Shown here: positions 19,562 through 64,000 of the stretch, in pieces
Layout of the letters: the number at the start of each line of letters is the position of its first letter
Numbering within the stretch: the stretch's first letter is position 1
DNA from: a virus
DNA length: 64,000 nt
IMG/VR virus record: IMGVR_UViG_3300025151_000018
Coordinates: 36,889 to 100,888 of that record
Direction: 5' to 3' (one strand)
The notes under the pieces: generated by a model
What the model saw: only the letters and a program-made list of their open reading frames with translations
Databases searched by the model: none
Told to the model about the DNA's origin: nothing
Translations under genes and position numbers: made by a program

Positions 19562-20014
19562 CTAATTCCATACCGTTGATTCGCCATCTTCATCATAAGA
19601 CCAACCGGGTTCATTCCAACATTCTTGGCATAGACCATTACGGCATTCCGCCTGTTGTTCACAGTCATTACACCAATCATCTTCAATTTCCCATTTTAAG
19701 GCTTCTTCCGGCCAGCCATCTTCATCATCATCTGGCTCTCGTAGCATATCCGCACCCGGTCCTGCTTTCATGCGTTGTGATAATTCTTCGTAGTTATCCA
19801 TCCATGAACCAACGATAGCCTGTGCTTCTCGCTTATCAATACCTATTTTTTCCAATTCCATTGGCGCACCGAACATATTGATGCGCCCAGATGCTTGCAG
19901 ATCAAAGAGAAGTTGATACCATCTATCCCATTCAGGGTTAATAGGTGTGTTTTTCAAAATAGACCACCCACGAGAAAGTGCCTTCTTCAAAACATCTGTG
20001 TCTTTCATCATCAA
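19562..20014 (-). CDS. hypothetical protein with N-terminal AFxxGW-like tag and C-terminal Cys motifs
   Basis: KALSRGWSILK at N-terminus; SGRINMFGA segment; CNDC...CQEC. Confidence 0.6.
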   Translation of the reverse strand: MMMKDTDVLKKALSRGWSILKNTPINPEWDRWYQLLFDLQASGRINMFGAPMELEKIGIDKREAQAIVGSWMDNYEELSQRMKAGPGADMLREPDDDEDGWPEEALKWEIEDDWCNDCEQQAECRNGLCQECWNEPGWSYDEDGESTVWN

Positions 20015-20018
20015 TCCC

Positions 20019-22271
20019 TCAATAAATAAAGTATGGGCTTGTTTCTGTCGCCTTCATGTGCCTAATTGCAAACTCAACCTCTGCGGTCACAGGCCCTTTG
20101 TCATCGGGCAACGGGTGATTAGCCTTCAATACAGTATAGTCCTCAATTGTGATGAGAGCATTCTGGCGTGTGCTTGCCGAACCCGGTTTGAATAGTGTCA
20201 TAGTAATGTCGTTAGTGTTGATGTGGTGCTTTCTCTGTCGCAATTCATCAAACCATCGGCTATCTTCAACTAATGCACTAAACTTGAATGTGTATTCTCT
20301 TGCTGCCTCTGTGATTTCAGAAGAGTATTGTGTTGCAGCCTCTTGCACCTGATCGCCAGCAGCATAACTGCCGTCTGTTCCTTTGATATACCATCGGGCG
20401 GTGTTAGAGTTGCTAATACCCAATTCAGCACTAATAGCCCTTAGCAAAGGTGCGCCAAAGGCTTGCATACTCACATGCTGAAACAAATACGGCTTCTCGC
20501 CATTTACTGCGATACCAGACACCCTGCGATTTACATGGGTGTTTGCAGTATTTTCAAACATACGGTGCGGATTGATGAATGTATCTTGAGTATCACTATA
20601 CATTCGCCCTGCTTCATAATCTCCGCTAATCTTTACTTCACCTTCGCTATCGGCTTTGAATGTGAAAGCATTGATTTTACAACCAGAATACACCCTTAGC
20701 ATTTGATTAGCACCGGGTGTAGTGTCTGTGGATCTAAATGATTGCTCAATACTAAATGTTGGCAAGTATGAATAGCCAAAGAAGTTATGCTCAACACCAT
20801 ACTTCAACTCGTTTGTAGTGTCAATGATGGCAGGTGAACCTCTCTCCCATGTTGTTCCGTTGGTGGTGTCATAGGTGTATGCCATTCTTTCAACACCACA
20901 TGATGTAGCGGTGTGTCCGAATAGGAATGGTTCTTCAACATAAACATAAGCAGCATCACCGCCAGCAGCCGTTCCAACCGCCAAAATCCTACGGATTTCA
21001 TGCTTGTTTAGTGTTGGTGCGCTAACATCAGCACCGGGAATTTGAACGGTATCTTTGTCAAAGATTTGTATGTATTCCCCTGCGGTAAATTTGGCTGCGA
21101 TTGTTGCGCCCAAGTTTATTCTCAAATCACCTGCAACTACATCGGCAGCAGGGCCAGCGAGAATGTGAATAGGAACATTGACTGTTTGCGCTCTTGCTAA
21201 TGCGCCAGAATCTATGTCTGTGCAACCTGTAAATTCAGCAGCACCGCCATAAGCACCGTAATGTCCGAGCAATGGTAGCCCATCTGTTGAAAGAACCTTG
21301 AATATGCCACCACCTGTCGCTACGACATCAAAGTTAGCGGTTGCAGTATCTGTGGTTGTAATTGCTAATAGTGTATCAGCAACGCTCAAAGAACCTATCA
21401 ATACATCTTTATCAACTGTGCTACCCAATCCTGTAAGTGTTGAAAATCCTGTTGGTGAATCATTTGTTGTTGTTGTAATGGTGGTATCAATTGTGTTTGT
21501 TCCAAATTCCTGTGCTGCAAGGTTTTTACTTGTTTGACCGTCTTTCAAGTTTAATGGTAAAGCACCCAAGATTGTATTGGCTGATGAAACATGAGAGTAT
21601 TCACCCATGCCCTTTGCAGTATGTCCTCCAAGAGCGTATTTCATAAATCTCAAAGAATGTGCGTTTAGATCGTATGCACCACCACCAAGTGTTTCCTTGC
21701 CACTTGTTAGGACATTGACATCACGCCCCATGCCTACAATGTGTTGCTTTCTAACATCAATCTCGGACTCTGGTAATGAGAATGAGTTAAGCAATCCTAA
21801 GAATTGGTCGGCTTTGATTCGCTCGCTTGTGCCAGCAGCACAGTCAGAGTCAAAGGTTGGCATACGCAATCCATTGATTACAAAGTAATCGTCAGCGTGT
21901 CCGGGGTTGTCAGCCGATACAAGTCTTGGTTGAATTGTAATTGTTGTGTCATCATTTGCCGTGATAGTGAAACTTCTGTATGTTGAAGCGTAATTATCAT
22001 TTGCATGGTTTTGGGAAGCATAAAAGCGAAGTGAAGCACCAACAAGCATATTGTTTGGCACTTTCATCTTTCCATCGGTATGAACCCAATACATACCTTC
22101 ACCGATTGTGATTGTTGATGTGTTTGCGGTTGGCCCTACTTTGGTAGTTTTCCACCCATCGGTTGCGGTTGTTCCATCAACCCATGTTCCTGTTCCTTGT
22201 CCTACTAATCCTGTTTCCTTCGCCATAGAAACTTCGGCTAAATCTCCCTTGAATACTTGGTTTGTCGGCAT
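20019..22271 (-). CDS. major tail tube protein with inserted accessory domains (750 aa)
   Basis: Tube-like segments (LPTFSIEQ, RVYSGCKINAFTFKADSEGEVKIS, REYTFKFSA, PLPDDKGPVTAEVEF) and synteny between terminator and chaperone. No sheath gene seen. Confidence 0.7.
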   Translation of the reverse strand: MPTNQVFKGDLAEVSMAKETGLVGQGTGTWVDGTTATDGWKTTKVGPTANTSTITIGEGMYWVHTDGKMKVPNNMLVGASLRFYASQNHANDNYASTYRSFTITANDDTTITIQPRLVSADNPGHADDYFVINGLRMPTFDSDCAAGTSERIKADQFLGLLNSFSLPESEIDVRKQHIVGMGRDVNVLTSGKETLGGGAYDLNAHSLRFMKYALGGHTAKGMGEYSHVSSANTILGALPLNLKDGQTSKNLAAQEFGTNTIDTTITTTTNDSPTGFSTLTGLGSTVDKDVLIGSLSVADTLLAITTTDTATANFDVVATGGGIFKVLSTDGLPLLGHYGAYGGAAEFTGCTDIDSGALARAQTVNVPIHILAGPAADVVAGDLRINLGATIAAKFTAGEYIQIFDKDTVQIPGADVSAPTLNKHEIRRILAVGTAAGGDAAYVYVEEPFLFGHTATSCGVERMAYTYDTTNGTTWERGSPAIIDTTNELKYGVEHNFFGYSYLPTFSIEQSFRSTDTTPGANQMLRVYSGCKINAFTFKADSEGEVKISGDYEAGRMYSDTQDTFINPHRMFENTANTHVNRRVSGIAVNGEKPYLFQHVSMQAFGAPLLRAISAELGISNSNTARWYIKGTDGSYAAGDQVQEAATQYSSEITEAAREYTFKFSALVEDSRWFDELRQRKHHINTNDITMTLFKPGSASTRQNALITIEDYTVLKANHPLPDDKGPVTAEVEFAIRHMKATETSPYFIY

Positions 22272-23162: not shown

Positions 23163-23166
23163 TTTA

Positions 23167-26956: not shown

Positions 26957-28105
26957 TCAACTCAAATCACGGATTTTACCGCTTGCTTTGAAGAAAGCAC
27001 AAATCAATTCACCCATAGTGTGAAACATTCCCATTTGACCTAATCGGTTGATACCGAATGGGTCGCCTGTTTCAATTCCAGACTCGTGATACAATGTTGG
27101 TTTAGCCGTTGTGAACCAACTGTAATCTGTGTCAAGGAAATACATACGGCTACTGCCGTCTTTCTTTACATCTTTAGAAGGAATGATAGGCACACCGTTG
27201 TAAGTTGCTACCATGAACCCACCTTGAATACCGGGAACTCCCTTTACACCATTTACACCCGGAACAACTCTCTTCATTTCAACGAAGCGTTGTTGTGGTT
27301 GCAATAGTTGCTGGATAGTTTCAAGTGTGTCATAGCCTGTTAGGATAACCTTTGGTTGGCCTCCCGCTTCCCAGACGCTCTTGAACATTCCATCAAGGAT
27401 ATTTAGTGATAGCGCACGATTTGCTGCTGCTACACCACCATCAACTTGAGCATCATACCAATTATCAGAAGTTCCAGCAGCACGAGTCAAATTGTAAATG
27501 TTGTGATCGGTTGCCAAATCAACGAAGTCTGTTGCAGTTTCAACGAATGCACTTGAAGTAATACGGTCAAGTGATTCAAAGTTGTTGCCAGCAGTAGTTT
27601 GCACATCTTCAAGAAGCATCTTATTGATGTGTTCTGTGTGGTGCTTTGCCATCTCCATCTTCATAACTGCTCTTGCATCTCCAAGACCATCATCTTTGTC
27701 AGCAAGGAACATAGCAGTTTCAGACAAGTCAAATGTGTGTGCGACTGTCTTTGGCTTTGTGCTTACATGCTCAAAGGTTGGCTTGGTTGTTTCTGGTAGT
27801 GTTGCGTTTTCACCGACACCGCCACCTTTCGCAAAGTCAGGCTTTGCGGTGGTGACCCTCCAACCAGACTTCTCCCAAGGCTTCTTAGGAAGGATAGAAA
27901 ATGCGTTAAACTCTTGGTTCAACTGCGACCATACTTTGCGACCAAATAGTGCTTGGTATGTTCCACTTGTGCTTGACATAAGAGGGGAATCAGCCTTCAA
28001 TAGATCTGTTCCCGAATACGCCCATGCGTTTTGTCCTGTTCCAGCCCCATAATAGAGGCGTTCCATATCTTCAATTGTGCGAATATAACCTGTGCTTCCA
28101 CTCAT
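26957..28105 (-). CDS. major capsid protein (HK97 fold)
   Basis: Follows the protease. GGGVGENATLPET...KPKTVAH, KVILTGYDT, ATYNGVPIIPSKD...MYFLDT, GKIRDL C-terminus. GGAGATGA RBS. Confidence 0.9.
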   Translation of the reverse strand: MSGSTGYIRTIEDMERLYYGAGTGQNAWAYSGTDLLKADSPLMSSTSGTYQALFGRKVWSQLNQEFNAFSILPKKPWEKSGWRVTTAKPDFAKGGGVGENATLPETTKPTFEHVSTKPKTVAHTFDLSETAMFLADKDDGLGDARAVMKMEMAKHHTEHINKMLLEDVQTTAGNNFESLDRITSSAFVETATDFVDLATDHNIYNLTRAAGTSDNWYDAQVDGGVAAANRALSLNILDGMFKSVWEAGGQPKVILTGYDTLETIQQLLQPQQRFVEMKRVVPGVNGVKGVPGIQGGFMVATYNGVPIIPSKDVKKDGSSRMYFLDTDYSWFTTAKPTLYHESGIETGDPFGINRLGQMGMFHTMGELICAFFKASGKIRDLS

Positions 28106-28123: not shown

Positions 28124-29437
28124 TTATTGTGTTCCCCCGAACAAGGCTCTTTGGCCTAACTCTTCTAAGGCTCTCCATCCATCAAGGCCGTTGCCAAGTG
28201 CTGCATACTCTTCATGTGTTGGTATGCGAATGTCGCTCTGGGAGGGAATAGGTGCTGCTGACTTTTGAATCTCTGCGTTTGTGTTTCGCAGGTTTGCAAT
28301 TTCAGCCTTTAGTGCTGCAATTTGTGAACCATGATCGTTTGCTTTCTGAATCTCCAAAGCGTGTTGGGTTTCAGCCTCATATCGGTCATGCCATTCTTTC
28401 TCAACAAGTGCTTTTACCGCTTCTTCATCACGAATTGCGGAGTATGCTGCATATCCACGCTCAAGGGATTGAGGGGATAGGTCAAGACCTTGCTTGATGA
28501 TGTTCTTGCCACCTGTTGGGGCAGGGTTCTTCATCTGTTGTGGTTGCTTGATAACATATTTGTTGGATTTAGCGTTAGGTAGTGAAGGTGCTGATGCAAG
28601 GGTTGCATCTTCTCCGCTACCATATAGGTCGCCTTGTCCTCTGTGAGTATATCCGTGAGAACCATCAACGCCAACCATGTATGCTTTTCCGAGTCCGAAG
28701 TGTCCTCGTAGTCCATCAAGATCGACACCTTGCTGATGTGCAAACTTTTCAAGGGAGTCAATGTATGCAATTGCTGCTTCTTCCTCTTGTTTTGCCATCA
28801 TAGGTGCTGGTTGTTCTGTCGGTGTTTCTGGTGCATCAGCCATGTGTTTGTTAATTCTTGCCAACGCATCTCGTATCTCTGTCAATGTTTCGCCTGTTTC
28901 GCCTGTCATTATATCATCATCCATTTTCAATAGGGTGTATGTGCTTTCTGGGTTAATACCCTTTTTACATAGAGTAATCTCATGTAATTCCATGTCGGTA
29001 ATTTCCCTATGAGAACCGTGTTCTTCTGTTGTTTTAGAAACACGGAATAGGGCTTGACCGCCAATGGAGAATGCACGAAGTTCGCCAGAGCGAACCTGCT
29101 TTTGGACTTCACGAGCCTTTTCTATGTCATCACGAATGCGACATACTACAAATAAGCCGTGATCATCAACTGTTGATTTCCATACTCTGCCATCACTATC
29201 TGTATATGATGGTAGCACTTCACCAACCTGAATACCACTATGTGCAAGTTGCACATTACGGTATGATGGGTTTTGCATGAACCCGTTAAATGCCTTTTTC
29301 AATGCTGAAACAGGGATTCTATCTCCTTGTTTATCAACCATATCAACAGAGGCATAGCCAGCAATAACAAGGTCGTTTCCTGAATCGGCTTTCAGAATAA
29401 ACTCTGAACCCGTTGCAGACCATGTTGCGCTTGCCAT
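28124..29437 (-). CDS. prohead protease (HK97-type) fused to scaffold-like coiled coil
   Basis: IAGYASVDMVDKQGD, QLAHS (His), LRAFSIGG (Ser), LHEITLC..GINPE; helical C-terminal half. Confidence 0.9.
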   Translation of the reverse strand: MASATWSATGSEFILKADSGNDLVIAGYASVDMVDKQGDRIPVSALKKAFNGFMQNPSYRNVQLAHSGIQVGEVLPSYTDSDGRVWKSTVDDHGLFVVCRIRDDIEKAREVQKQVRSGELRAFSIGGQALFRVSKTTEEHGSHREITDMELHEITLCKKGINPESTYTLLKMDDDIMTGETGETLTEIRDALARINKHMADAPETPTEQPAPMMAKQEEEAAIAYIDSLEKFAHQQGVDLDGLRGHFGLGKAYMVGVDGSHGYTHRGQGDLYGSGEDATLASAPSLPNAKSNKYVIKQPQQMKNPAPTGGKNIIKQGLDLSPQSLERGYAAYSAIRDEEAVKALVEKEWHDRYEAETQHALEIQKANDHGSQIAALKAEIANLRNTNAEIQKSAAPIPSQSDIRIPTHEEYAALGNGLDGWRALEELGQRALFGGTQ

Positions 29438-29461: not shown

Positions 29462-29468
29462 TATTTAA
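29462..29468 (-). promoter_or_regulatory. archaeal TATA box for protease/MCP operon
   Basis: TTAAATA(C) about 25 nt upstream of the protease ATG; the same octamer precedes the 52935 gene at similar spacing. Confidence 0.5.
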
Positions 29469-32400
29469 GCCATTTGGGGTTGATCGGGTTGTGGTGGGGG
29501 TAATTGCGGTTCTTCTGGTTCTTCAAGCGGGGTCTTAACCTTAGCCTCTTTTTCGGCTTCACGCTTTGTTTTTTGAGGGAATGAAAGCGTTGCTTCGCCA
29601 CCCTCAACCTCTAACTCTCCCTCAACCTCTTCGCCTAAATTGTTAGTGCTTTGTAATGAAATGTGCAGGGCTTGTTGTATTTGCTCTCCATCTTCCTGTT
29701 GATATGGGTCAAACATAGGTGTGGCTTCTTCATCAATCAATTCAGTCGGCCCTCTTGGTGCAGTTAGCATATCCATTTCACCAGACCAACCGCCCCCGGT
29801 CATAGCCCCAGATATGCGAGCCATATTCATGCCCTGCTTCTCTTGAACATCATCGTCTATGGCTTCATTGACAGTCCATTCGCCTTCATCTGTGCGCTCT
29901 AAACCAAATTCACCGCCCTTTTCATTTAGATCTTCTTCTGTCAATCCATCAATCTCTGATAGCAATTGTTCAGTAGTCAGCGATTCATCGGTATTAGCAA
30001 TATGCCTTCTTGCTGCTACTAACAAATTAGATGATTCTCTTGGATCACCTGATGGGTCTAATAATTCAGCACGAGTAAATAGCATACTCCCATGATTTGA
30101 GATGAAAGGTGGATAAGGTGTAATCTCTTTAATGTCATACTTGAATAGATGCGCTGCAACAGGCCCCCAGATTGATACCTGCTTTTCAGCGTGTTTTGCT
30201 AAGGGAGTATCATCATCAATCTGTAAATCTAATCCGTTGCCATCCCATTCAGCCTTTACTACAAGTGGATTTAACTCTGCATATTCCAATACTATGTTGC
30301 CGTTTATGCGAGAAACATAAGGTAATGCGCTCTTTGTAATATCACCATCAGGCGCATACAACACCCACTTGTGGTGTGATTCTTTACCTTTCATAAATGT
30401 TGAAGTAGCATCTCTTAACCATACTTCACCACCTATTGCATCAATGTTTTTTACCAATCCATCACGATCTGTAAATTTGCAATCCTTCGGCATTGGGAAT
30501 GAAATGCCCTCATCTGTTTCATACAGGGTGCGAAGGATAGATAACCTATCTTCTAAAGCATCCATGTGTATATCTTCACCTTTGTGAACCAACAAATCAA
30601 TTGCTCGGTAATGCTTTCCTTTCAATACACCGTCAAAGGTGCAATCACCAGATTGCTTTCGCAATCCTTCTTTGACTTCTTTTGGTAATGATACGCTCTG
30701 CCCTTTACCATTATGTGCTGATATATGGCTACCACTTTTTGATACTATGACTCTTTTACCCTCTGGTCGGCTTTGGATAACCCAATTGCCTGTGAAGCCT
30801 TTGAGATCATCAATATCGCCAATGTCATACACAGTATGTGCAGGGTTGATGATGGTCTTGAAAACGCCCGTTGCTTCATAATCATCGTTTGATTTATACA
30901 AATCACCACTTACAATATGTGCAAGTCCATCTTCATTTTGTGTGAATAGTGCTGGCACATCAGTTTGCTTAGGTTGCATTGGGTGATTGAGAATTGTTGG
31001 ATTAACCATGTTCACATGGTTTTCATGGACTGTTGTTTGTAATGTATCAAATGGTTTGTCTTTAACATCAAAGCGAACAGTATTGTTAGCCCTATCCCAT
31101 TTCCACGCAAGTGTTGCTGGCATTTTATGACCCCAAGCATCAAGATTACCCGGTAAATGTGTCGGTGGGTGTGTGGCGTGTGATGAATGGTGAACAGGAC
31201 CGATAGCGACTTCTCTTGGTATTAGCCCACCTGCGCTTGGCATAGGTGCAGTAGTCTTGTAATCTGGATTTTCACCACGCATTAACATATAATTCGCAGC
31301 CTGTGCTAATTGTTGGATATTGCCACGAGCAACGGACAACCCCCTAATATCACCGGGTTTAGTGTTGAATAATTCTGGATATTGCTCTTGTAATTTCATA
31401 GCCATCTCTTGCATCATCTTTCCTTGATTCTTATCCGATGCTTGGTAATGTGGGTTGTGATAAGACCAATACTCTTCATCAGCAGGGTGTCTTTCAGCAA
31501 ACCTGCCAACTCTCGGCATTCCTAAATCGGTGTGCATTTGCACTATGTTAGCAAGTGGCTCTTGTCGCATAGCATCAGAAGGAACGGTCATTAGCCCTCC
31601 CTTTCCTTGTATTTCACTTGGGTGCAAATGGTGGTGATTAGATACCGCAGCCCATGTGCCTCTCCTTGCATTGATGCTACGGGTTCTTGGATGTTCCGAG
31701 CCAGCCTCCCAACCTGTATGCAAAGCAAACCTGTGCGGGTGGTCTTTCAGCGTTTCGTCATTAACCGTAGCGGGAAAGTGAGATGAGCCTATGCCATGAT
31801 GAGAATCCTCTGGGTCATTGATTGGGTGATCTTCATGGTGTAATACGCCTAACATTTGGTCGCCCAACCAACCGTTAAACGCTTCAGGATATGAATCACG
31901 CATTAGTCTAACAAAGGAATTGACATCTCTCCCTACACCGCCCCAATGCTGAAACGGTTGCCACCAATGGTGTGTAAATGAAGGCAATAGTGTTCCGGGT
32001 TCGGCTTCGGTCATCCAATTATGAAGATGTGTTGCTTTAGCCCAAGGCGACTTCATCTCTTCAAGTCCACCTTCTTCACTTGATGCTGATACAGGGCCAT
32101 GCCTGTGTTGTGGTCTGGCCCACCATCTTGCCATAGGTATCATTCTTTCAAACCAATTTCTCTTAGCCCTATCCCATGACATACCTGTTGCTGCTTTGAA
32201 ATCATTTCTAATTTTCTTAGCCTCTGGTGAATCATAACTTTCTGTGCCACCTAATTTACGCAAAGCACCCATAAAAGCATCGGTTTGGTCTTTCGTTTGC
32301 CATTCTGTGCCAAACAAATATGACAACAATCCCAAACGAGATGTGCGACCATTCCATTCCTGTCGCTTCAACTCTTCATACTCTTCATCGGATAAGTAGC

Positions 32401-49682: not shown

Positions 49683-49686
49683 TATA

Positions 49687-50340: not shown

Positions 50341-50352
50341 TGTTTCACCTAT

Positions 50353-51246: not shown

Positions 51247-51285
51247 GATACCATGTCAGGGCTAACAGGATAAAAAAACTTCTTA

Positions 51286-52014: not shown

Positions 52015-52020
52015 TCACGA

Positions 52021-52242
52021 TCACTCGCCCCGAATGTGCTGCCAAATGGCTTCTGGGCTTATTTGAAGCCAAATATCCATGCCAACCAAAGTTAGAAAGG
52101 TTATACCAGCAGTTGCAACAACCGCAATAATTAGTTTGATGTTGTTTGTCGCTCGCTCTAACCTTCGCTCATAAGCATTCTCGGCTAATATCATAGACAT
52201 GGCTTCGGCTTGTCTTTCATTAGCGGTGCTAAACGGCCACAT
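52021..52242 (-). CDS. small single-TM membrane protein
   Basis: LIIAVVATAGITFLTLVGM hydrophobic span; MWPF start. Confidence 0.65.
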   Translation of the reverse strand: MWPFSTANERQAEAMSMILAENAYERRLERATNNIKLIIAVVATAGITFLTLVGMDIWLQISPEAIWQHIRGE

Positions 52243-52252
52243 GGGTATCGCC

Positions 52253-52738: not shown

Positions 52739-52904
52739 CTCCCCTTTGTTTGAAGTATTGCGCTAAAATATGATTCACAAACGATGACTTAGATTCCCTG
52801 CCCCGTTCCGCCTCCATTTTGGCAAACAATTCATCAGGCATTACTACCGATACATGACGGCTCATGTGTAAATGCCACTACTGTTAAGGCTATCAAGGTT
52901 GTGA

Positions 52905-53453: not shown

Positions 53454-54274
53454 ACAAAGCCATACGGATTTATGAAGTCGGCCCAAGAGATGGCATACAG
53501 GTCATGCAACACATTGTTGATACAGATCTCAAGGTAAAACTAATTGAAAGTCTGGTAAAGGCTAATTTGAAAGACATTGAAGTCGGTTCGTTTGTTCACC
53601 CCAAACTTGTTCCTAACATGGCTGATTCAGCCGAAGTGTATGAAAAAATATCACATTTAGATGGTAATTTTGGGGTTCTTGTGCCAAACGGCAAGGGTTT
53701 GAGCCGAGCGCAAGAAGTGGGTGCTAAGATGTTTAATGTATTCTTTTCACCCGTTGCCTCATTCAATATCGCTAATCACGGTAAAACCTATGATGAAGTC
53801 TTTGAGCAATACTACATTGCACTAAAGGATATACCCAGAGATAGGGTTCGGGTCTATCTATCCATGTCATTCCACGCTACAAAGAAGCAAATGCACAAGG
53901 CTATGAAAGACGCTTTGATGCTTGGCGACAAGGTTGTATTGTGTGATACAGACGGCAAAGCATCAAGCGAGCAATTCTATCACACTATACGCAGGGCATT
54001 AGAGCATACAGATAATGTTGCAATTCACCTACACCAAAGCACAAAACTCATGCAAAATGTCGCTACTGCCTATGATATGGGTATTACGGAGTTTGATTGT
54101 AGCATAGGTGGTATGGGCGGTTGCCCGTTTGTTGAAGGATCTAAGGCTAACCTTGCCACAGAAGATTTGGTTCAATGGTGCAAAGAGCGTGATATACCCT
54201 GTAATGTGGGTGATTTATCACAAGCGTTAGAGATTGTTAGTAAAATCAAAAATCATCAAGTTGTCTTGGGTTAA
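53450..54274 (+). CDS. hmgL: hydroxymethylglutaryl-CoA lyase (DRE-TIM metallolyase)
   Basis: EVGPRDGIQ, EVGSFVHPKLVPNMAD, LVPNGKG, HLH metal site, GGMGGCPFVEGSKANLATEDLV. Confidence 0.9.
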   Translation: MNKAIRIYEVGPRDGIQVMQHIVDTDLKVKLIESLVKANLKDIEVGSFVHPKLVPNMADSAEVYEKISHLDGNFGVLVPNGKGLSRAQEVGAKMFNVFFSPVASFNIANHGKTYDEVFEQYYIALKDIPRDRVRVYLSMSFHATKKQMHKAMKDALMLGDKVVLCDTDGKASSEQFYHTIRRALEHTDNVAIHLHQSTKLMQNVATAYDMGITEFDCSIGGMGGCPFVEGSKANLATEDLVQWCKERDIPCNVGDLSQALEIVSKIKNHQVVLG

Positions 54275-56672
54275 GTTTGGTATTGTAAATATGCTCTAAC
54301 AATGAAGGAGGGTATCTTGCAAGTGGGTTATCGTGATCAGCATAACCGATTGTTGAACCTCTCCGATAACACGCACGACACTTCTTTTCTCCCGTCATTG
54401 GGTCAGGTTGCATATCACATTTCCTTTTGAGTTGATTAGGCTCAATTGAAGCGGGGCATACGCTAAAATTAGGGTTGTTTTCCATAAGTGTGTCATAAGT
54501 AGTGAAGTCAATCGCAGGGTGTTTTCCTAATTCGTGCAAATTAACACCCTCATACACCGTGTTGGGTTTAATGTCATCAGGAGTCATTCTTCCCGGTAAA
54601 GATACCTTTAACGCCAAATTAGGTGAAATATCTTCCCAACCTCTCGCATCAAGGAACTCTTGTAAGAACGGTAATTGGCGTGTTGAACCCCAAAAATCAA
54701 CGGCAGGGTTGTCCTCTGCTATTTTGTCTGCTGCTGCATACGCACCCGGTCCTTGAGCATCACCTGCCGACCATAACCTTGCAACAGGTTTGTCTTTTCT
54801 TGAAGTGCGGTCTAACAATGCTCTTGGTGTTGCAGTAAGTGAATAGGCTGATGCTACTTCTTCTGGGTGTTCTATCATTCTATCATAATTTCTCCAAAGT
54901 GCTGCTTGTGTTGAGTTGAATTTGTAGTTATGGTCGCAAGCATAACAATGACCGCAAGCCGAATTAGGATTATCTCTTGTAGCAAAGACACAGGCTCTTG
55001 GTGGTGCATCCATCATAGATGGCCCTGCCATTTTACCCGGTTGTCCGTAATGCCCGAACTTCTCTGGCTTTCCTCTATAATCAAGATTTACACTAACATC
55101 TTCCCATTCTGGCAATTCATAATCAGCGTCAAGGGGAATATCCATCAAGCGGGGATTACCAAACTCATCGGTGATGTGGTCTTGCACCAAATAGTCGTTT
55201 GCTTTTAACCAATTGATAAGATCCATATTTCCGCTATTCCATTTCCCTTCAACCTTTTTTCCTGATTCTTTTCCTGTTGGGATGCCAAGATCTTTCCACC
55301 AATTCATGTAATTTGGCATTTCATCAGGTGCTACTGCCTTGTTGAATATATCAGCCATTTCTGTCAAATCATTGACAATTGACCTGCGAATGATTGTCTG
55401 TGGGTCTATGCCGTCAGGAAAAAACTCGGCTTTTCCTAACCAATCGTCTGGGTTGAATGCTTCACCAAACCTTTGTTCCCATGCCATAGCCTCTTCTGGT
55501 GTTCCTAAGAATTGTTGTTGTGGGTGATCTCTAAAATACTCGGCAGCGTCAAAGTTAGGAATGTTTGCAGTAGCAATCAATTCGGGCTTAATGCCTCTTT
55601 TACCTACTGTTGCAGTATTATCCCTGCGTCTGTTCAACATTGTGCTAAAGCCTTGATCGCGATATAAATCCGCAACAAGTGGGCTATTGTATGCTATGAT
55701 AGGCAAACCATCTTCGGCTAATTCACCCAATCGCCTTGCGAGTTGTTGTTGCTGACCGCTTTTCATATCAAACTTATCAGAATACCCTGCTTGCTCTCCT
55801 TCATACGGTGGGTCAATTGGCATAATACCCCTATTGGTATCAATCTCCTTATCCCTCAAAAACTCATCAACAGGCATAGCATCCATTTCCCAATTTTCCA
55901 TCATTGGCTTGTAGTGCCTGTAATTCCATATATCAGCATAAGGGCCACCTGCGCCTCTTGTCATGGTATATCTTCCTGTTTGGTTGTTATATCTGGTAAA
56001 TGCGTTTAGTGAAGATTGCTGCGTCATAAGCCACAATTGGGCTAATCGTTTGTAGCCATCATCATCTAATTCTCCACGATTCGCCATGTCTAACATATAA
56101 TTTAGTGAACCTTCTTCTGGATTTATTGCACTACCTCTTAATGTCGGTCCATCATAATGGCTTATGTCATGTCCTCCTTGAACCGCAGCCTCTTGGCCGA
56201 ATTGAGAGCCAAAGAATGTCGGCTTGCTAATCATATTTGGCCTTGCTATATATTCCGAAGGATCCATCTGTTGCCCTGCTTTTTGTCCTGTTGGGAAAAT
56301 TTGTCTTGCCCTGTCATCATCAGGAATACCATGCCCTGTAAATTCCGACCAATCAATTTCAAAGTTGGGGTCTTGTTGCATTTGGCGATATGCGTTAATG
56401 ATGTTAGCATCTTTATCGGCTACTGATATTTCCTTCATAGGCAAATTCAATGGTAAATTCGCACCACCAACCATTGGGTCATACAGAATATCAGCACCTG
56501 TCCTTGAAACTATGCGCTTCAAAGGGTCAATGTAGTGATCTCTCCCTTTACTACCAGCCCACTTTAATGGTGATTGTATTTCTGGGCGACCCTTTTGCGG
56601 GGGTTTTATACCTCTAACACCTTGACCTTTTGGCTTAGGGTCAGGGCCATCAAAGAGATAACGGTTAGCCAT
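54246..56672 (-). CDS. Dam-family (D12) DNA adenine methyltransferase fused to a gp88-like Cys-rich domain
   Basis: SPLKWAGSK, YDPMVGG, DKDANIINAY, NAFTRYN, IDPPY; then AC...SACGHCYA...RLWSAGD...FWGSTR...CPA...CRACY. Confidence 0.75.
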   Translation of the reverse strand: MANRYLFDGPDPKPKGQGVRGIKPPQKGRPEIQSPLKWAGSKGRDHYIDPLKRIVSRTGADILYDPMVGGANLPLNLPMKEISVADKDANIINAYRQMQQDPNFEIDWSEFTGHGIPDDDRARQIFPTGQKAGQQMDPSEYIARPNMISKPTFFGSQFGQEAAVQGGHDISHYDGPTLRGSAINPEEGSLNYMLDMANRGELDDDGYKRLAQLWLMTQQSSLNAFTRYNNQTGRYTMTRGAGGPYADIWNYRHYKPMMENWEMDAMPVDEFLRDKEIDTNRGIMPIDPPYEGEQAGYSDKFDMKSGQQQQLARRLGELAEDGLPIIAYNSPLVADLYRDQGFSTMLNRRRDNTATVGKRGIKPELIATANIPNFDAAEYFRDHPQQQFLGTPEEAMAWEQRFGEAFNPDDWLGKAEFFPDGIDPQTIIRRSIVNDLTEMADIFNKAVAPDEMPNYMNWWKDLGIPTGKESGKKVEGKWNSGNMDLINWLKANDYLVQDHITDEFGNPRLMDIPLDADYELPEWEDVSVNLDYRGKPEKFGHYGQPGKMAGPSMMDAPPRACVFATRDNPNSACGHCYACDHNYKFNSTQAALWRNYDRMIEHPEEVASAYSLTATPRALLDRTSRKDKPVARLWSAGDAQGPGAYAAADKIAEDNPAVDFWGSTRQLPFLQEFLDARGWEDISPNLALKVSLPGRMTPDDIKPNTVYEGVNLHELGKHPAIDFTTYDTLMENNPNFSVCPASIEPNQLKRKCDMQPDPMTGEKKCRACYRRGSTIGYADHDNPLARYPPSLLEHIYNTKLNPRQLDDF

Positions 56673-57357
56673 TGTTCCGTTCCCTCCATTCTTGTTCAGC
56701 CTTCTCTTGAGCGACCCTCAATTGTGCCATCATTTCACCCCATTGTTCACTATACATAGGGTTATCCCAAATAGTAATACCGGGATTACCTGCCGACCTA
56801 TCTTCATTTGATGGGTTTCCTTCCGCCATCATGTTAGGCCACAAATCTTCTGGGGGTATTTCTTTGGTTGAAACAACGGAGTCGCCTTCGCTCGGTTCGT
56901 AGTCTGGCCCCATCAACATTTCAGGCACAACGGCACTATGATCTATACCCGGTTGAATACTTGGGTCATCTTCATCACGCCAAAACGGTATAGTTGCTAT
57001 TTTCGGAGAACCCCGTCTGCCAAAGGACATCCAACGCCTTGCCAAATCTGGGTTTTTTGAAGCATATACTAACGCCTCTGGCCCAAACTTTATCCCATCT
57101 CTAAGAATAGGCATGACATTTTCTTCTGGTGTAGCATGATAATACCAAGGTGCTTTTACCAAACTACCTAAATCGCCATCTCTGTCATACTCTTTCCATT
57201 TGCCATCTAAATCAGCAATAAAGTATCTCCCACAACCTCTGCAAAAGATACTGCCATCTCTTGAGTTATGATATTCATCTTTCAAATTGCAAGAGGGGCA
57301 TTCAAAAAATGGGGCTTCTTTGATAATCGCCCAACCTGTATCAAATGCAACACCCAT
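56665..57357 (-). CDS. tagged Zn-ribbon plus ADP-ribosyltransferase-fold protein
   Basis: AFDTGWAIIK; CPSC/CRGC; YYHATPEENVMPILRDGIK...VYASKNPDLARRW...EIPPE. Confidence 0.6.
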   Translation of the reverse strand: MGVAFDTGWAIIKEAPFFECPSCNLKDEYHNSRDGSIFCRGCGRYFIADLDGKWKEYDRDGDLGSLVKAPWYYHATPEENVMPILRDGIKFGPEALVYASKNPDLARRWMSFGRRGSPKIATIPFWRDEDDPSIQPGIDHSAVVPEMLMGPDYEPSEGDSVVSTKEIPPEDLWPNMMAEGNPSNEDRSAGNPGITIWDNPMYSEQWGEMMAQLRVAQEKAEQEWRERNNG

Positions 57358-60300
57358 CAGTCCTCATCCTCCAATTCCTTATCCCTTTCTCTTTGCTTCA
57401 ACTCTATATCTAATTCACGCCAATTGTGAAAACCTGCTTCTTCAAGTCGCCTATCAGCAATCTCACTAAGTATATCGGTTAAATTCTTTCGCTGATACCG
57501 TGTGTTTGGGTCATCACTTGCAGGGTTTTCCAATTGTTGCACATAACTATCTAAATCCCAATCATCAGAAACACGGCTTGCCCTTTGCTTAAACTCGCTA
57601 TCATGCGGTTCACCACCAAACGCAGGGAACATTTCACGCTCTTTTTCAGTCATCTCATCTGTTGGCTTTCTTCCATCAAAAGTTTCTTCATCTTCTTCAG
57701 GAGTCCAAACTTCTCTATCATACTCTGAATCCATGAATGCTTGAGCAATAGCCCTGCTAACAGGGTCATACTTGTGCCTCCTTTCAGCACCTGCTTTTTG
57801 TGGTTGGTATCTGGGTTTTTTACTCTTTAATCCAAAGAATAAGCCACCATCTTCTGTTCCTGTATAATAATCATCATGTCCTTTAATGTAGTATTTGTTA
57901 TATGCTTCGTTGAACGGTATTCCTTCTTTTTCAGCCATTTCAGATATATAGGACACAATATCTAAATCATCAAAGCGATTGACATTTGCTCTCATATCTG
58001 TGTAATCACTACCAGAATCTCTGCGATTGCGCCTGAAGGCATCTCCTTTTTCTGATAGTGGTTTCCATCTATCAGCCGACTCCAAACCTACATTTCTCAT
58101 AGCCGACATTGGTTTCCCTGCTAATGGGTGAGGAATTAACTGTTCCTCAATTGGTTCATACTGATCTCTTTCATAACTACCAATTCTGTCATACAGGTTT
58201 GTTAATTCACCTGTCAAGTCATACTCTGACATTTCTTTATCATCATAACGGCCTGTTCTTGTTTGATGTGGCAAACCATCTTCCTCTATATTCCATTCTT
58301 TGCCCTTGTATGTTCTTTTCATTGAGGGTAATTTGTATTTTAGATTGCGACCATCATAATTTTCTTTCAATTCCAATGCTTCTTTTGGTATCAGTCCGTA
58401 TTGTAATGATGGGAACAAATTGTAAATGGTTTGCAAATCTCTTGGGGTTTTTTCGGGGAAGCGTTCATCACGGTATCTCCCTCTTCCCGTATAATACTCG
58501 TTATATGCGTCAAGAACCTCTTTGTGTTCTGGATTGTTTTCGGGGTCAAACTCAACAAACTCCATGTCAGATCGCATCATATCAGGGAATACCTTTGGCC
58601 TGTTTAGATTCATTATATCATCTTCAATGCCTAATTCTTTCGCATAATCAATCAATTCTTGCTGAATAGCAGCCCTTTTTTGCGTTATGTCGTCAATTAC
58701 CGCTTGCTCTTTCGGACCGGGTTTCTTGTAATCTTTATCCCATTTCCAAGGATAGCCATCGTTGTAATCTTCTCTTATTGCCTCAATCATTGCTGGATTA
58801 CGATGATGATAGGATAACTCCGAACTATAATCCATGCTATCAATGTATTCATCTCGCATATTCGCCCACTTTGAATACAATTTGTAGTATGGGTTCTCTT
58901 TATTATAATCCTCTCTGAACCCGGCTGGCTTTTGTAATAACCCTAATTGACTCATTCGCCTCAATTCGGGTTTCATTGGACTATCGCCATAAGCCCCCAT
59001 ATCTTCATCCCATAAATCAAATGACATAGGATAATACCTCATATTCATTGGTCGCCAATCTTGAACATAGCCATAATCTGGGTCTTTCCAATCCCTGTCA
59101 TCTCCGATTAGTCTGGTTTGGTCGCCCACTTGACCTGCCAATATCCTTCTCAACTGCAAACGCCCAATTTCGCCCTTTACATTGTCTGGTAAATCGGCAA
59201 TCGTCTTAGGAACAGGGGCATTACCTGCTAAAACATCTTTGAAGTGATTGTCTAATGCCGACATAGCCTCCGAAGTAAATTCTTCGGCCATCTTTTTCCT
59301 TCTCGGTCCTGTATTTTCGTCATAATAGGTGGATGGAGTCATACCTGTCGGGTCAGTAGCATAAGCCCCAGATTCGTCTAAAATTCCCGCACCCTGTTGC
59401 AAGATTGCATTTCTTAGGTTTCTGTATATGCGTTCCTGTGGTGGCAGTAGTAATCTTTCAGCGTCAGGGTTTCTGACAGGTTGCCAATCTGATTCAGACA
59501 TTTCACCCAAAAGTGGCATTCCGGGTTTCCTTTCAGGAGGCACACCCATGATTCTTCTCAACTCACTTGGCCTTCTCCCACCTTTCCTTTTCGGGTTTAG
59601 GTCTTTTGCCATTCTTTGTGCGTTAATTGGATTTTCAATGCCCCACTTCTTTTGCGCCCTTGCAACCGCTTCAAGATAGGCTCTCCTTTCGGCTTGCTCA
59701 ACATCACGGTGATGAAGCCACTTAGCAGCAGCATATTCAGGATTAAACGGAAATTCTGTGGTGTATGCAGCCTTTTCATGCCATGCACTTCTGGTGCTTT
59801 TATCACTAAACCTATTTGGGAATGGTTGTCTTGGTTCTCTCATTCTTGCCCTTGCAAATGCAGGATCGTCTAACATTCGTGCCATTACTCTTGACTTTTC
59901 ATCACTTGACATTCCTGAAAATATACTTGAGGGGTCTTGCGTGAAATACTTAGAATATAACTCATCTTGTGTTGCTACATGGCCTGTTTCGTGGTCGGCA
60001 GTATCAATAATATCAGGTATCGCTTCACCTTCAAAGTCTTTCAGCCTTTCATTATATGATTCAATAAAATCATCAATTTCATCTTGATCGTAATCCATTC
60101 CATCAAAAGAGCCATCTAATCTTGGGTCATCTGGTGCGCCTCTTGTGGTTCTCCACCCAGATCCTTCGGCAAATGGTCGCAAATATGTGAAATCTCTCCC
60201 TGATCTTGGGCTAAGATAGCGAACCACATCCGTTCCACCGATGATTTCTCCCGTTGGCTTGCCTTCATCATCACGGATTCTTTTGCCACCTACATTGTCG

Positions 60301-60491
60301 GTTCTTGTTTCCCACCCTTCTGGTAAATTATCTGGGTCAAAGTCAGGGGGCAATGCTTGAACCATTGGGAAATCTCTTGCCGATGCTCTTGCATACCCCA
60401 AATAATCGCCACCACCTTTTTCTTTGAATGGTCGCACAAGAAAATCGGACTTAGTGATGATTTTTCTTGCGGTTGAAGGTGAAATACCCAT
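57357..60491 (-). CDS. large charged protein with HExxH metallopeptidase-like motif
   Basis: Likely start MGISP (TGATG overlap at 60491); TADHETGHVA...AWHEKAAY. Confidence 0.6.
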   Translation of the reverse strand: MGISPSTARKIITKSDFLVRPFKEKGGGDYLGYARASARDFPMVQALPPDFDPDNLPEGWETRTDNVGGKRIRDDEGKPTGEIIGGTDVVRYLSPRSGRDFTYLRPFAEGSGWRTTRGAPDDPRLDGSFDGMDYDQDEIDDFIESYNERLKDFEGEAIPDIIDTADHETGHVATQDELYSKYFTQDPSSIFSGMSSDEKSRVMARMLDDPAFARARMREPRQPFPNRFSDKSTRSAWHEKAAYTTEFPFNPEYAAAKWLHHRDVEQAERRAYLEAVARAQKKWGIENPINAQRMAKDLNPKRKGGRRPSELRRIMGVPPERKPGMPLLGEMSESDWQPVRNPDAERLLLPPQERIYRNLRNAILQQGAGILDESGAYATDPTGMTPSTYYDENTGPRRKKMAEEFTSEAMSALDNHFKDVLAGNAPVPKTIADLPDNVKGEIGRLQLRRILAGQVGDQTRLIGDDRDWKDPDYGYVQDWRPMNMRYYPMSFDLWDEDMGAYGDSPMKPELRRMSQLGLLQKPAGFREDYNKENPYYKLYSKWANMRDEYIDSMDYSSELSYHHRNPAMIEAIREDYNDGYPWKWDKDYKKPGPKEQAVIDDITQKRAAIQQELIDYAKELGIEDDIMNLNRPKVFPDMMRSDMEFVEFDPENNPEHKEVLDAYNEYYTGRGRYRDERFPEKTPRDLQTIYNLFPSLQYGLIPKEALELKENYDGRNLKYKLPSMKRTYKGKEWNIEEDGLPHQTRTGRYDDKEMSEYDLTGELTNLYDRIGSYERDQYEPIEEQLIPHPLAGKPMSAMRNVGLESADRWKPLSEKGDAFRRNRRDSGSDYTDMRANVNRFDDLDIVSYISEMAEKEGIPFNEAYNKYYIKGHDDYYTGTEDGGLFFGLKSKKPRYQPQKAGAERRHKYDPVSRAIAQAFMDSEYDREVWTPEEDEETFDGRKPTDEMTEKEREMFPAFGGEPHDSEFKQRASRVSDDWDLDSYVQQLENPASDDPNTRYQRKNLTDILSEIADRRLEEAGFHNWRELDIELKQRERDKELEDED

Positions 60492-61093
60492 CAAATATCC
60501 CCCTTTTGTAGCATATCCCATGTAATTTCAAAGGCATCTGATGAAGCATAGAAGCCCATGTCCTGTGATGCTTGGTCTGTTGGCAAACTCGCCTCCGAGC
60601 ATTTATCCCATGCTTCAAGCACACGGTTTGCAAGAGAATCTTCCCATGAATGATTGGATCGTGGGCTATTTGGGTTCATACCCGGCCTTGTTAGACTCCG
60701 CCTCCCATACATGAAGGCGTAGCCCTCTGCATCAAACCTGTTCTCTAAAGATTGGCGGAACTCTTCACAGGACATAGCCTCATACATTTCCAAAATACGG
60801 AGTCCTCCATCGGGATCGTTTGTATAGGTGCTATCACCCCATCCCTCCACTAAACCTTCACGCCACATTTCCTTTGCTTCGCCACAACATGGGTCATTTC
60901 CCATGTCTGTTTGTGTCATATCGGGCATAACATCATCATCGGGCATGAGTATTTCTCGCACCTTAAATGCCAAGTCTGGATCCTCAAGTGTTCTTTGAGG
61001 CTCAAACAAATCAAGAGGTTGAGATGCCTCTGGATTTATATTGATTCTTGGCGAGCCGTTAGGTCTTTCATACCTAAAGTTTCCACTCACCAT
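60491..61093 (-). CDS. hypothetical protein with C-terminal tag variant
   Basis: GGGGTGA RBS; DPCC...MSCEEF...WDKC; ends DAFEITWDMLQKGDI. Confidence 0.6.
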   Translation of the reverse strand: MVSGNFRYERPNGSPRININPEASQPLDLFEPQRTLEDPDLAFKVREILMPDDDVMPDMTQTDMGNDPCCGEAKEMWREGLVEGWGDSTYTNDPDGGLRILEMYEAMSCEEFRQSLENRFDAEGYAFMYGRRSLTRPGMNPNSPRSNHSWEDSLANRVLEAWDKCSEASLPTDQASQDMGFYASSDAFEITWDMLQKGDI

Positions 61094-61222
61094 GCTTCAC
61101 CCCAAAGCATACCAACCCTTTAGGGTTTTTATGATAGACTTGTGATATATCGCTAAAATATCACCTTGTTAATGTTGTCATTTGTGTCAAGGTTAATATG
61201 TATGGTCGGCTCGCATAGGTTC

Positions 61223-62755
61223 ATGCAAGGCCAACCCGTCTTTATCATGCAGCAGGGAACAACACAGGAACAAGGGAGAACCGCCCAAACTAACAATATC
61301 GCAGCAGCGAAGGCAGTTGCACAAGCGGTTCGCACCACTTTAGGACCAATGGGTATGGATAAAATGCTCGTTGATGAAAGTGGAGATGTGATTATTACCA
61401 ATGACGGTGCTACAATCCTTGAAGAGATTGATATTGAGCATCCAACGGCTAAAATGATTATTCAAATCGCCAAAACACAGGAACAGGAATGTTATGATGG
61501 CACTACATCAGCAGTTATTGTATCTGGCGAGTTGCTAAAGAAGTGCGAGGGGTTGATCGAGCAAGATATACACCCAACCACCATTTGCAGGGGGTTGAGA
61601 AAGGGTCTGGTCTTTATATTAGAAAAATTGAAAGACTACGAGATTGCCGACATTGACCTTGACAAAATTGCCAAAACTGCCCTTACAGGTAAATCGGCTG
61701 ACTCGTTTAAGGACATTATATCTGACATTTGCGTTAATGCGGTGATGAATACCGACAGTCTTGAGGAAATTCGCATCTCAAAAGCACTTGGTGGGTCAGC
61801 AGAGGACAGTATTATCCTTGATGGCATCATCATAGACAAGGAAAGATGCCACCCTGCTATGCCAACATACCTAAAAAAGCCGTTTATAGGGCTAATTGAC
61901 AGTAATTTGGGTGTAAAACAGACAGAAATTGATGCAAACATACAAATTACCGATCCTGCACAGATTGAGGCGTTTTTGGCTAAGGAAGAAGCCGAATTAC
62001 AGGCTATGGCAGAGAAATTCCATGCTGAAAAGGTCAATGTAGTGCTATGTCAGCGTGAAATTGATGATTTAGTCAAGTATCACTTCGCAAAATTGGGTAT
62101 TTTGGCTCTTGAGAAGGTCAATAAGACCGATATGGAGGCAGTAGCGTCAGCATCTGGTGCTACAATCATCAATAATGTCAAAGATTTGAATACTGACGCA
62201 TTAGGTTCGTTTAATTTGGCTGAACAGGAAACACTTGGCGAGTTGCCAATCCTAAAACTGTCAAATGGAGTCAATGCAGCCACTACTGTGCTACTGCGTG
62301 GCCCTACTACACACTTTGTTGATGAAATTGAAAGAGCATTTGACGATGCTTCGGGTGTTGTTAGCGTTGCACAATCCGATTCTGTTGTCCTTGCAGGTGG
62401 TGGATCCACCTATACAGGCTTATCCAACAACCTTGCAGCCCATGCAAAGACTGTATCAGGCCGTGAAGGTATGGCAATCCTTGCTATGGCGGAGGCACTT
62501 GAGGCAATTCCACGCACTTTGGCAGAAAACGCAGGGCTTGACCCCGTTGATGAGATGATGGCTTTGCATAAAGCACATGATAAGGGCAAAAAGTATCACG
62601 GAATTAACATTGAAGTCGGTGGTGCTATTGATATGCGTAGTCTGGGAGTCTTTGAGCCTAAGCGAGTTGTTGAACAGGCACTAAAGTCAGCAGTTGAAAC
62701 CGCAATCATGGTTCTCCGCATTGACGATATTATATCTTCAAAGAAGCGTGATTAA
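61223..62755 (+). CDS. ths: thermosome (group II chaperonin) subunit
   Basis: QPVFIM N-terminus, [29 protein letters not shown], helical-protrusion [22 protein letters not shown]. Likely start ATG 61223 with TTAATAT about 24 nt upstream. Confidence 0.95.
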
Positions 62756-62874
62756 GCCTCAAACACTTTACTGTAAATCCAAGCGATTGGTAGCAGTATG
62801 ATCAGTATTGGGATTAGAATCAAGCCACCCAGAGCCATTAGTGCGAGCAACCATAATGGTTTATTTTCATTCAT
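62752..62874 (-). CDS. 40-aa single-TM microprotein (below ORF-track cutoff)
   Basis: [40 protein letters not shown]; start overlaps the upstream gene end and the ORF exactly fills the gap. Confidence 0.55.
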   Translation of the reverse strand: MNENKPLWLLALMALGGLILIPILIILLPIAWIYSKVFEA

Positions 62875-64000
62875 CTTTAACCCCAAACATTCGCTCATAT
62901 CTAACAGGGAGGCGTTCTGACATAATTTCTTTCACATTACGGACATCTTGAATCCAATTTTCAACATGATCTGCCGTCAATGGTTCAAATTCCCCACTTT
63001 CCATTGGGTGATAATTCTCCCACCAACCATCTTCTGTTGGTGGCATAAGCACACTACCCTGTGTGACCTCACGCATACCAGATGAATGCCCTCTATCATC
63101 AGGCAGCCAAGGAGTCAAAGCATCATGCCCCATATCGCCCAATAGCACATTCATTGGTGATAAACCACCCAAATCTTTCATTCGCCAATCTAATTCCTGT
63201 AATATCTCTGGATCTTCCATCCAATCTCCGTAAAAATCATGTTCATCATCACGACCCCAACCATGCCGTTGAACAATAGGGGAGTCTTGTAAATATCGGT
63301 AAAGATTTTCGGTGTAGTAAGGTTTGATTGTGTTTTCATGCTTACCATCTTTCAAATCTTCAAAATTAGACCAATAAGAACCGGGTGAATAACTCTCTTT
63401 GCGTGGATTATCTGCGGTGTAGTAGCGTGTGAATATATCAGCATAGTGTTTTGCTTTGTCGTCATCGGATATAGGGTCATTCCATTCTGGTCGCATAACT
63501 ATGGGGGGTTCTCTATTGATATTTCCACTATACAATTTATCACGAGGGCTTTGCACTTCTCTCCAAGTATCTTTTCCGCCTTCTGCTAACACATTGTTCA
63601 ATAAAGTCATAGAAGCATCTCTAAACTTGGGTGAAGTAATAAGTGGCTTCTTTGGTTTTGGTATATACACCATTTGACTTTTATCATCATTTTCTCTCAA
63701 ATACTCTTGAATCCCTAATAATTCCTTTTCTGTGCTACCCCTATACATCGGGTCAAACGGGCCACCGTGATAATATGTTCCTGAAACACCTGTTCCAGAT
63801 CCTCTGCCGGGCAACATTTCATGGTGTGTGGGCCGATAACCACCAATCTTGGGATTTATTTCTGTGTCTAAAAATCTTCCATGTTCTTCATTCCATTTTT
63901 TGCCATAGATAGGAACGGCCTCTGTGACCGCAGGTGCAGCAAGGTCAAATCCGTGAACCCGGAAGCCCTCACCCCAATTCTTGACAATATCCCAAGCGGT
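62867..64000 (-). CDS. hypothetical protein, N-terminus beyond window, carries tag (..TAWDIVK)
   Basis: The frame of the 316-aa ORF stays open for 61 more codons to position 64000, beginning TAWDIVKNWGEG. Confidence 0.65.
   Translation of the reverse strand, partial: TAWDIVKNWGEGFRVHGFDLAAPAVTEAVPIYGKKWNEEHGRFLDTEINPKIGGYRPTHHEMLPGRGSGTGVSGTYYHGGPFDPMYRGSTEKELLGIQEYLRENDDKSQMVYIPKPKKPLITSPKFRDASMTLLNNVLAEGGKDTWREVQSPRDKLYSGNINREPPIVMRPEWNDPISDDDKAKHYADIFTRYYTADNPRKESYSPGSYWSNFEDLKDGKHENTIKPYYTENLYRYLQDSPIVQRHGWGRDDEHDFYGDWMEDPEILQELDWRMKDLGGLSPMNVLLGDMGHDALTPWLPDDRGHSSGMREVTQGSVLMPPTEDGWWENYHPMESGEFEPLTADHVENWIQDVRNVKEIMSERLPVRYERMFGVKDE

Follow-up and report, generated by a model that had tools for sequence, protein, structure and literature searches.

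What is the role of a short peptide of about ten residues, first noticed as AFxxGWxxxK, that recurs on otherwise unrelated proteins of one viral genome? The question is raised by the IMG/VR virus record IMGVR_UViG_3300025151_000018, a linear record of 100,888 bp with an estimated completeness of 95%, of which bases 36889-100888 (64,000 nucleotides, hereafter the window) were analysed. The peptide, termed the tag in the following, is real, portable between proteins, conserved at the protein level and widespread among related viruses. As to its function, sequence comparison and analogy with known phages incline us, with somewhat more belief than doubt, to regard it as a portable leader that can stand on different accessory proteins of a magrovirus and destines them, as cargo, for the capsid interior.

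The eight peptides quoted in the preliminary description were recovered exactly by reverse-complement translation. All of them lie on the minus strand, in frame and within long open reading frames (ORFs). A six-frame search with a regular expression found the motif on no other strand or frame, and its minus-strand matches were always inside long ORFs. The copies are listed below in window coordinates, together with a degenerate one and two copies outside the window.

19952-19981, minus strand: ALSRGWSILK, at residue 12 of a 150-residue ORF (19562-20014) between the genes for the tube-like and the tape-measure protein
40600-40629, minus strand: LFDFQRSVVK followed by NPFANP, a degenerate second tag with R in place of W in the 589-residue protein of the next line
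41845-41877, minus strand: VFEYVWDQMQK, an 11-residue variant, at residue 33 of a basic, proline/glutamine-rich protein of 589 residues (40204-41973)
46795-46824, minus strand: AFDDAWSMLK, internal, at residue 146 of a 602-residue protein (45451-47259)
47906-47935, minus strand: AFNIGWSVVK, at residue 51 of a cysteine-rich protein of 136 residues (47675-48085), between two cysteine-rich modules
48472-48501, minus strand: AFAVGWAIVK, N-terminal, at residue 5 of a 143-residue protein (48082-48513)
57319-57348, minus strand: AFDTGWAIIK, N-terminal, at residue 4 of a 230-residue protein (56665-57357)
60503-60535, minus strand: AFEITWDMLQK, residues 187-197 of a 200-residue ORF (60491-61093)
63980-64000, minus strand: ..TAWDIVK, cut, the first residues of an ORF (62867-64000) that runs off the end of the record
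genome 31041-32333 and 32472-32747, minus strand: two further tags outside the window

For comparison, 80 related loci around the terminase gene and three near-complete genomes (G001, G002 and G003) were collected, with terminases 76-94% identical to that of the window; this genome and G001-G003 form the four-genome set used below. In the three full relatives the tag is sharper and reads M-T-A-F-D-x-A-W-x-h-h-K (h, hydrophobic residue; x, any residue), usually as residues 1-12, and runs of up to ten consecutive genes start with it. After dereplication the consensus was M(61%)-T-A-F-D-x-A-W-x-[LVI]-[LV]-K, 61% of the tags beginning with M-T-A-F, and the next residue was mostly A or M, then P. 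The ending is h-h-K, or h-Q-K in the 11-residue variant. The tag forms a predicted amphipathic helix of three turns, as had been proposed before. Tagged proteins number 55 in the four genomes, and 53 of them share their coding strand with the terminase, portal, protease and capsid protein; 33 of 57 tags are within the first 12 residues.

Apart from the tag, these proteins have little in common. With the tag masked, the 55 proteins fell into 42 BLAST families, and 443 tagged ORFs from all fetched loci gave 256 clusters at 50% identity, in agreement with the earlier observation that the carriers are unrelated. The short leader is the sole feature common to them. A hidden Markov model (HMM) of the tag had 51 matches in the four proteomes compared with a mean of 0.1 in shuffled and none in reversed sequences, and a model built only from G002 and G003 recovered seven copies in this genome. 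Comparison with shuffled sequences and with replication genes had been suggested as checks, and the tag stood out in both: none of the plus-strand replication genes of this genome carries it, and it sits on accessory genes of the late strand. In 46-62% of pairwise comparisons, identical tag residues had different codons, and the nucleotide identity was 58-67%; W and K are invariant while third codon positions vary freely. Selection therefore acts on the peptide and not on the DNA, which bears out what had been said about codon usage.

Few tagged genes are common to the four genomes, whereas all four retain a block of small untagged genes (48506-52865, minus strand). The tagged genes thus belong to the accessory part of the genome, which is rapidly replaced. 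The 143-residue protein, for example, had a homologue in none of the three relatives. In other cases the position of the tag is kept. The gene for the 589-residue protein is directly upstream of the large terminase gene, and its orthologues hold the tag at residues 31-37; where it has its degenerate second tag, the closest relative has an intact AFNSAWSVLK followed by DPFANP. The internal tag of the 602-residue protein is found at residues 144-151 in its orthologues. The array of tagged genes probably continues beyond the window, which would then hold its proximal part alone, because the record stops within a tag at 63980-64000; in relatives the densest run of MTAFDxAW genes is located just beyond the point that matches the end of this record. 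A match in the tape-measure protein (MWGKGWDRMK, 17135-17164) was judged to be due to chance as it is not conserved in a relative.

A strict DNA version of the pattern MTAFDxAWxxhK was found in 93 IMG/VR stretches with up to 7 copies per locus, always on one strand. It matched 7, 7 and 8 times in three virus genomes of ~100 kb and not once in 301 Poseidoniales genomes (~500 Mb), and a host sorting signal is unlikely on these figures.

The junction between tag and cargo was studied with 17 homologues of the 230-residue protein (56665-57357). In most of them, the tag lysine stands directly before the conserved body (K↓APWYYHAT..., the arrow marking the position after the lysine). One homologue has ~175 residues ahead of the tag, which still abuts the body. 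In the window copy and three others, a Zn-ribbon has entered exactly at this junction and separates tag lysine and body, while most orthologues are without this insert. At its end the insert brings its own h-V-K or V-Q-K, and the same alanine follows; in the window the Zn-ribbon (57154-57321, minus strand) is bounded by AIIK13, followed by E, and SLVK68, followed by A (lysine codon 57154-57156). Conservation falls sharply after the tag lysine. The 200-residue ORF (60491-61093), which overlaps the start of a 1054-residue ORF (57357-60521) by 31 nucleotides (30 coding and one stop-codon base), had been described as carrying a C-terminal tag. This description did not hold, as the ORF consists of an N-terminal domain and a tag followed by a stop, with no body. 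In the closest relative, the protein does not stop after this N-terminal domain and tag but goes on for another ~360 residues, in which there is a weak C5 DNA methylase signal; the cargo domain has therefore apparently been lost or swapped here. As judged from these alignments, the rule is tag, lysine, cargo, with optional material upstream, which is an architecture of the propeptide type.

The 230-residue protein was also the most informative with regard to cargo identity. Its structural model reached a predicted local distance difference test (pLDDT) score of 72.8 overall and of 85-91 for body residues 70-130. With VIA-align, the body (residues 65-198) matched archaeal Tpt1/KptA with a Z score of 10.4 and a root-mean-square deviation of 2.7-3.4 over 87-92 residues, and A subunits of bacterial ADP-ribosylating toxins with Z scores of 6.5-8; all top rows were of the ADP-ribosyltransferase (ART) fold. 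According to the model, the cargo body has this fold, in line with the ART-like enzyme named in the preliminary description. H74, Y98 and E129 do not vary among 18 orthologues and are, on their conservation, candidates for the H-Y-E residues. Directly upstream of this gene lies that of an untagged 808-residue protein (54246-56672, minus strand) with a GP88-family domain (E 4e-12) and a weak D12 methylase signal.

The two tags outside the window are found on a D12-class (Dam-type) adenine methylase and on a lysine/arginine-rich protein of 91 residues, and other tagged proteins are likewise very basic. Between the genes of this methylase and the 91-residue protein lies a small transmembrane ORF (L179; genome 32287-32475, minus strand). 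The same layout of methylase, transmembrane ORF and basic protein is present in G001; in this genome it stands at the far end of the late strand. Pfam and PHROGs assigned no family to the tagged proteins of the window. The DnaJ-type Zn finger reported earlier is a candidate at most, suggested by CxxCxGxG-like motifs and with no match in Pfam. For ten tagged proteins from relatives the sole match was to a C5-methylase, below the threshold, and a search of the ESM Atlas with a 377-residue cargo gave nothing above noise. By analogy, the cargo types would match proteins known to be packaged: the ART fold corresponds to T4 Alt, the D12 methylase to P1 DarB and the basic 91-residue protein to the internal proteins of T4.

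The virus itself is a magrovirus-like tailed archaeal virus of ~101 kb and of marine origin. Magroviruses were described with a genome of ~100 kb and a capsid module distantly related to haloarchaeal siphoviruses (PMC5434244), and the ~100-kb linear genome, the halovirus-related capsid module and the marine origin of this record agree with that. The capsid protein shares 32-33% identity with its counterparts in HVTV-1, HCTV-1 and HCTV-5, which are siphoviruses of haloarchaea, and the best cellular matches of the viral thermosome are from metagenome-assembled genomes of Poseidoniales (53% identity). An archaeal host, as previously supposed, is plausible because of the halovirus-like capsid protein, the ~100-kb size and the thermosome nearest to Poseidoniales; it is probably a member of Marine Group II. 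The head and tail genes, which together make up the morphogenetic module of a tailed virus on the minus strand, and the thermosome gene are located as follows.

16730-18460, minus strand: tape-measure protein
20019-22271, minus strand: tube-like protein
26957-28105, minus strand: major capsid protein
28124-29437, minus strand: Peptidase_S78 prohead protease fused to a long scaffold-like C-terminal half
35437-37224, minus strand: portal
38788-40203, minus strand: large terminase
61166-62755, plus strand: group II chaperonin (thermosome; Pfam Cpn60_TCP1, E 1.5e-151)

The protease matches Peptidase_S78, the HK97 type, with 36.8 bits at a cutoff of 21. Between the portal region and the protease, in the slot of the 1313-residue 'zeta toxin' protein of HVTV-1, a 1166-residue protein (29465-32965, minus strand) is encoded; it has neither a Pfam family nor a tag.

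The preliminary description had stated that the tag shares its ending with the capsid protein and the protease. This was right as to the sharing, while the form given there, hydrophobic-x-K, had to be replaced by h-h-K or h-Q-K. Among 60 distinct orthologues of the protease-scaffold protein (60-89% identity), four h-h-K sites were invariant, namely FILK16, TLLK171, YVIK297 and NIIK315. TLLK171 lies where the protease domain ends, and the linker that holds YVIK297 and NIIK315 is otherwise variable. In the capsid protein, NAWAYSGTDLLK37↓ADSP was nearly invariant in 53 sequences, with N26 and A29 kept in 52 and S31 in 44 of them. This site resembles the N-terminus of the protease, W-S-A-x-G-x-D-F-I-L-K↓x-D, and the common pattern W-x-x-(x)-G-x-D-h-h-(h)-K↓(A/S)-D was invariant or nearly so in 53 capsid and 61 protease sequences. 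The N-termini of both proteins may be short propeptides that are recognised alike. The positions in question are given below.

27995-27997, minus strand: codon of capsid protein K37, candidate maturation site
27983-28012, minus strand: shared N-terminal pattern in the capsid protein
29378-29422, minus strand: shared N-terminal pattern in the protease
29390-29392, minus strand: codon of protease-scaffold K16
28925-28927, minus strand: codon of protease-scaffold K171
28547-28549, minus strand: codon of protease-scaffold K297
28493-28495, minus strand: codon of protease-scaffold K315

The C-terminal helix of the protease-scaffold protein, LDGWRALEEL with an invariant W421, shares G-W-x-x-L with the tag. 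It was rejected as a copy of the tag, since its upstream hydrophobic register differs and the tag HMM gives it no score; the resemblance is weak.

The distribution of h-h-K in the cargo bodies was determined as well. In a larger dereplicated set, the ratio of observed to expected h-h-K was 0.76 in cargo bodies (z -2.6) compared with 1.28 in untagged proteins of the same strand (z +4.9). The control patterns showed no comparable gap between cargo and untagged proteins, with 0.94 and 0.92 for K-h-h and 0.97 and 1.12 for h-h-R. In the four genomes, the raw proportion of lysines in h-h-K was 2.6% in cargo against 7.1-7.5% (p ~2e-7). An avoidance of h-h-K in cargo would fit exposure to a protease that cuts after h-h-K, and the evidence for it is rated as moderate because the compared protein sets differ in kind.

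By analogy with T4 and from indirect sequence statistics, we infer packaging of the tagged proteins, cleavage after the tag lysine and injection. The F2/W6/h9 face of the leader helix would dock on an internal component of the procapsid, either the scaffold half of the protease-scaffold protein or the inner face of the HK97-type capsid protein, and the cargo would be trapped when the shell closes. The S78 prohead protease would then cut after the invariant lysine (h-h-K↓), and the same enzyme would probably cut the capsid protein (DLLK37↓A) and the scaffold linker. Freed in this way, the ART-fold enzyme, DNA methylases, Zn-ribbon proteins and very basic proteins would enter the host cell together with the DNA. 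The full version of this scheme, in which one plug-in peptide of 12 residues loads hundreds of effector families, ADP-ribosyltransferases, DNA methylases and DNA-binding proteins among them, that are set free by the protease and delivered into Poseidoniales cells, is possible and is put forward tentatively.

Several observations weigh against capsid-interior cargo. The h-h-K lysines make up 6 of 36 conserved lysines compared with a background of 6.5-8.6%, which is a modest enrichment, and the conservation of K16 and K171, located within the S78 domain or at its border, may have a structural cause. After control for composition, the h-h-K ratio in the four genomes was 0.76 with a z of -1.3, which is not significant, and K-h-h was also low; the depletion was specific only in the larger set, whose cargo and control differ in protein class. 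The AlphaFold model of the capsid protein had a pLDDT of 32, so that K37 could not be placed on the fold, and its profile gave only chance matches against PDB sequences. The tag HMM had no match in the structural half of HVTV-1, although the capsid module is shared, and the virion proteomics of HVTV-1 are therefore not transferable. Several tagged proteins are large (589 and 602 residues) and have an internal tag. The tagged Dam-type methylase ends in a Leu-Phe tail which may be a clamp-docking peptide, implying a role in the cytoplasm. Finally, magroviruses are an uncultured group.

A role in the cytoplasm would be expected if the tag docked its clients on a hub other than the capsid, such as the viral thermosome (61166-62755) or a viral or host assembly factor, and the proteins acted in the infected cell. 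The thermosome gene is present in all four genomes and lies inside the tagged block, on the opposite strand, in this genome as well as in G001, but it is far from the tagged array in G002 and G003. The tag is specific to the virus, for which reason a viral receptor is expected, which need not be the capsid; at least one tagged protein, the Dam-type methylase, is plausibly cytoplasmic. We know of no chaperonin that selects its clients by a linear N-terminal tag, however, and a hub of this kind leaves the invariant terminal lysine, the drop of conservation after it, the parallel h-h-K sites and the avoidance of h-h-K unexplained. We consider this explanation unlikely. The lysine and its surroundings would be accounted for if the tag were only a recognition and cleavage signal by which the S78 protease frees modules from precursors, with no capsid loading involved. 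Internal tags with upstream domains, the Zn-ribbon flanked by two h-h-K junctions and the recurrence of h-h-K in head proteins are all consistent with such processing. Yet prohead proteases of the S78 family are, as far as we know, active inside the procapsid, where the substrate must then be present, and pure processing therefore merges with the cargo reading. Most tags are moreover at the extreme N-terminus, where cleavage alone would free only ~12 residues. Conservation, in the form of F, D, A and W, reaches seven residues further upstream than positions P3-P1, an arrangement that the capsid and protease sites do not have, which suggests a second function such as docking. A signal for cleavage alone is accordingly rather improbable.

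Least credit is given to the view that the shared N-terminus has no function as a peptide and is a by-product of a process at the DNA level, for instance cassette exchange or a translation-initiation element. Tandem arrays and rapid turnover of the tagged genes are the pattern expected of recombination cassettes, but the codons differ in about half of the comparisons at the low nucleotide identity given above, W and K stay invariant over free third positions, and tags also occur internally and near C-termini. This makes a DNA-level origin highly improbable.

If the tagged proteins are indeed capsid-interior cargo, the virion-delivered proteins of uncultured and globally abundant viruses could be picked by a simple rule, namely that the gene is on the late strand and its leader ends in h-h-K. 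Magroviruses rank with the most abundant archaeal viruses in surface seawater, and their tagged genes would directly name proteins that may serve host takeover and anti-defence in marine archaea, for which a genetic system is absent. It would be the first system for capsid targeting and effector delivery in an archaeal virus, and the short peptide might be used to load foreign proteins into HK97-fold shells. The magrovirus papers do not mention such a motif, no paper joining 'capsid targeting' with 'archaeal virus' was found in the searchable literature, and neither was a publication on the tag.

Among known systems, T4 comes closest. The capsid targeting sequence (CTS) is the only feature shared by the internal proteins of T4 (PMC3012670). 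In T4 (IPI-III and Alt) as in the magroviruses, a short leader alone is common to diverse, fast-evolving proteins encoded in variable gene arrays, with an ADP-ribosyltransferase and small basic proteins among the cargo. The T4 CTS ends at the motif of the prohead protease, to which the magrovirus h-h-K would be a candidate counterpart. The T4 leader is cut after Glu, whereas the proposed magrovirus cut is after Lys in h-h-K, and the two leader sequences show no similarity. The magrovirus tag also differs in that it may be internal, in the archaeal host and in a far larger repertoire (256 clusters). As the leader sequences differ and the magrovirus protease is an HK97-type Peptidase_S78 and not of the T4 gp21 type, the two systems are not homologous.

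Enzymes in the head, including a protein of the DNA methylase type, and N-terminal propeptides that are removed are also known from the anti-restriction Dar system of P1 (DarA, Hdf and DarB) and from the giant phage SPN3US. The head of P1 contains DarA, a substrate of the prohead protease, as well as the large enzyme DarB (PMC12810830), and the ejection proteins of SPN3US have N-terminal propeptides of 20-254 residues that are removed by the prohead protease (PMC10052503). Unlike the magroviruses, these phages have no common short tag, and loading is hierarchical through specific contacts or long propeptides. The cargo-loading peptides of encapsulins are likewise short peptides on unrelated cargo and bind inside an HK97-fold shell. 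They are usually C-terminal, have another sequence and remain uncleaved, and the encapsulin shell has no DNA, portal or protease.

With HK97, the magroviruses share the S78 protease family and a candidate cut between a lysine and a small residue (DLLK↓ADS). The HK97 capsid protein is cleaved after Lys103, and the HK97 protease is targeted by its C-terminal tail. The magrovirus scaffold is fused to the protease and not, as in HK97, to the capsid protein, and to our knowledge HK97 does not load accessory cargo by a shared tag. If the cargo reading is correct, the idea of capsid targeting developed for T4 would hold for archaeal viruses, too, and for proteases of the HK97-type family, which would suggest an independent invention. 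By analogy, the magrovirus tag looks like a functional counterpart of the T4 CTS rather than a homologue of it.

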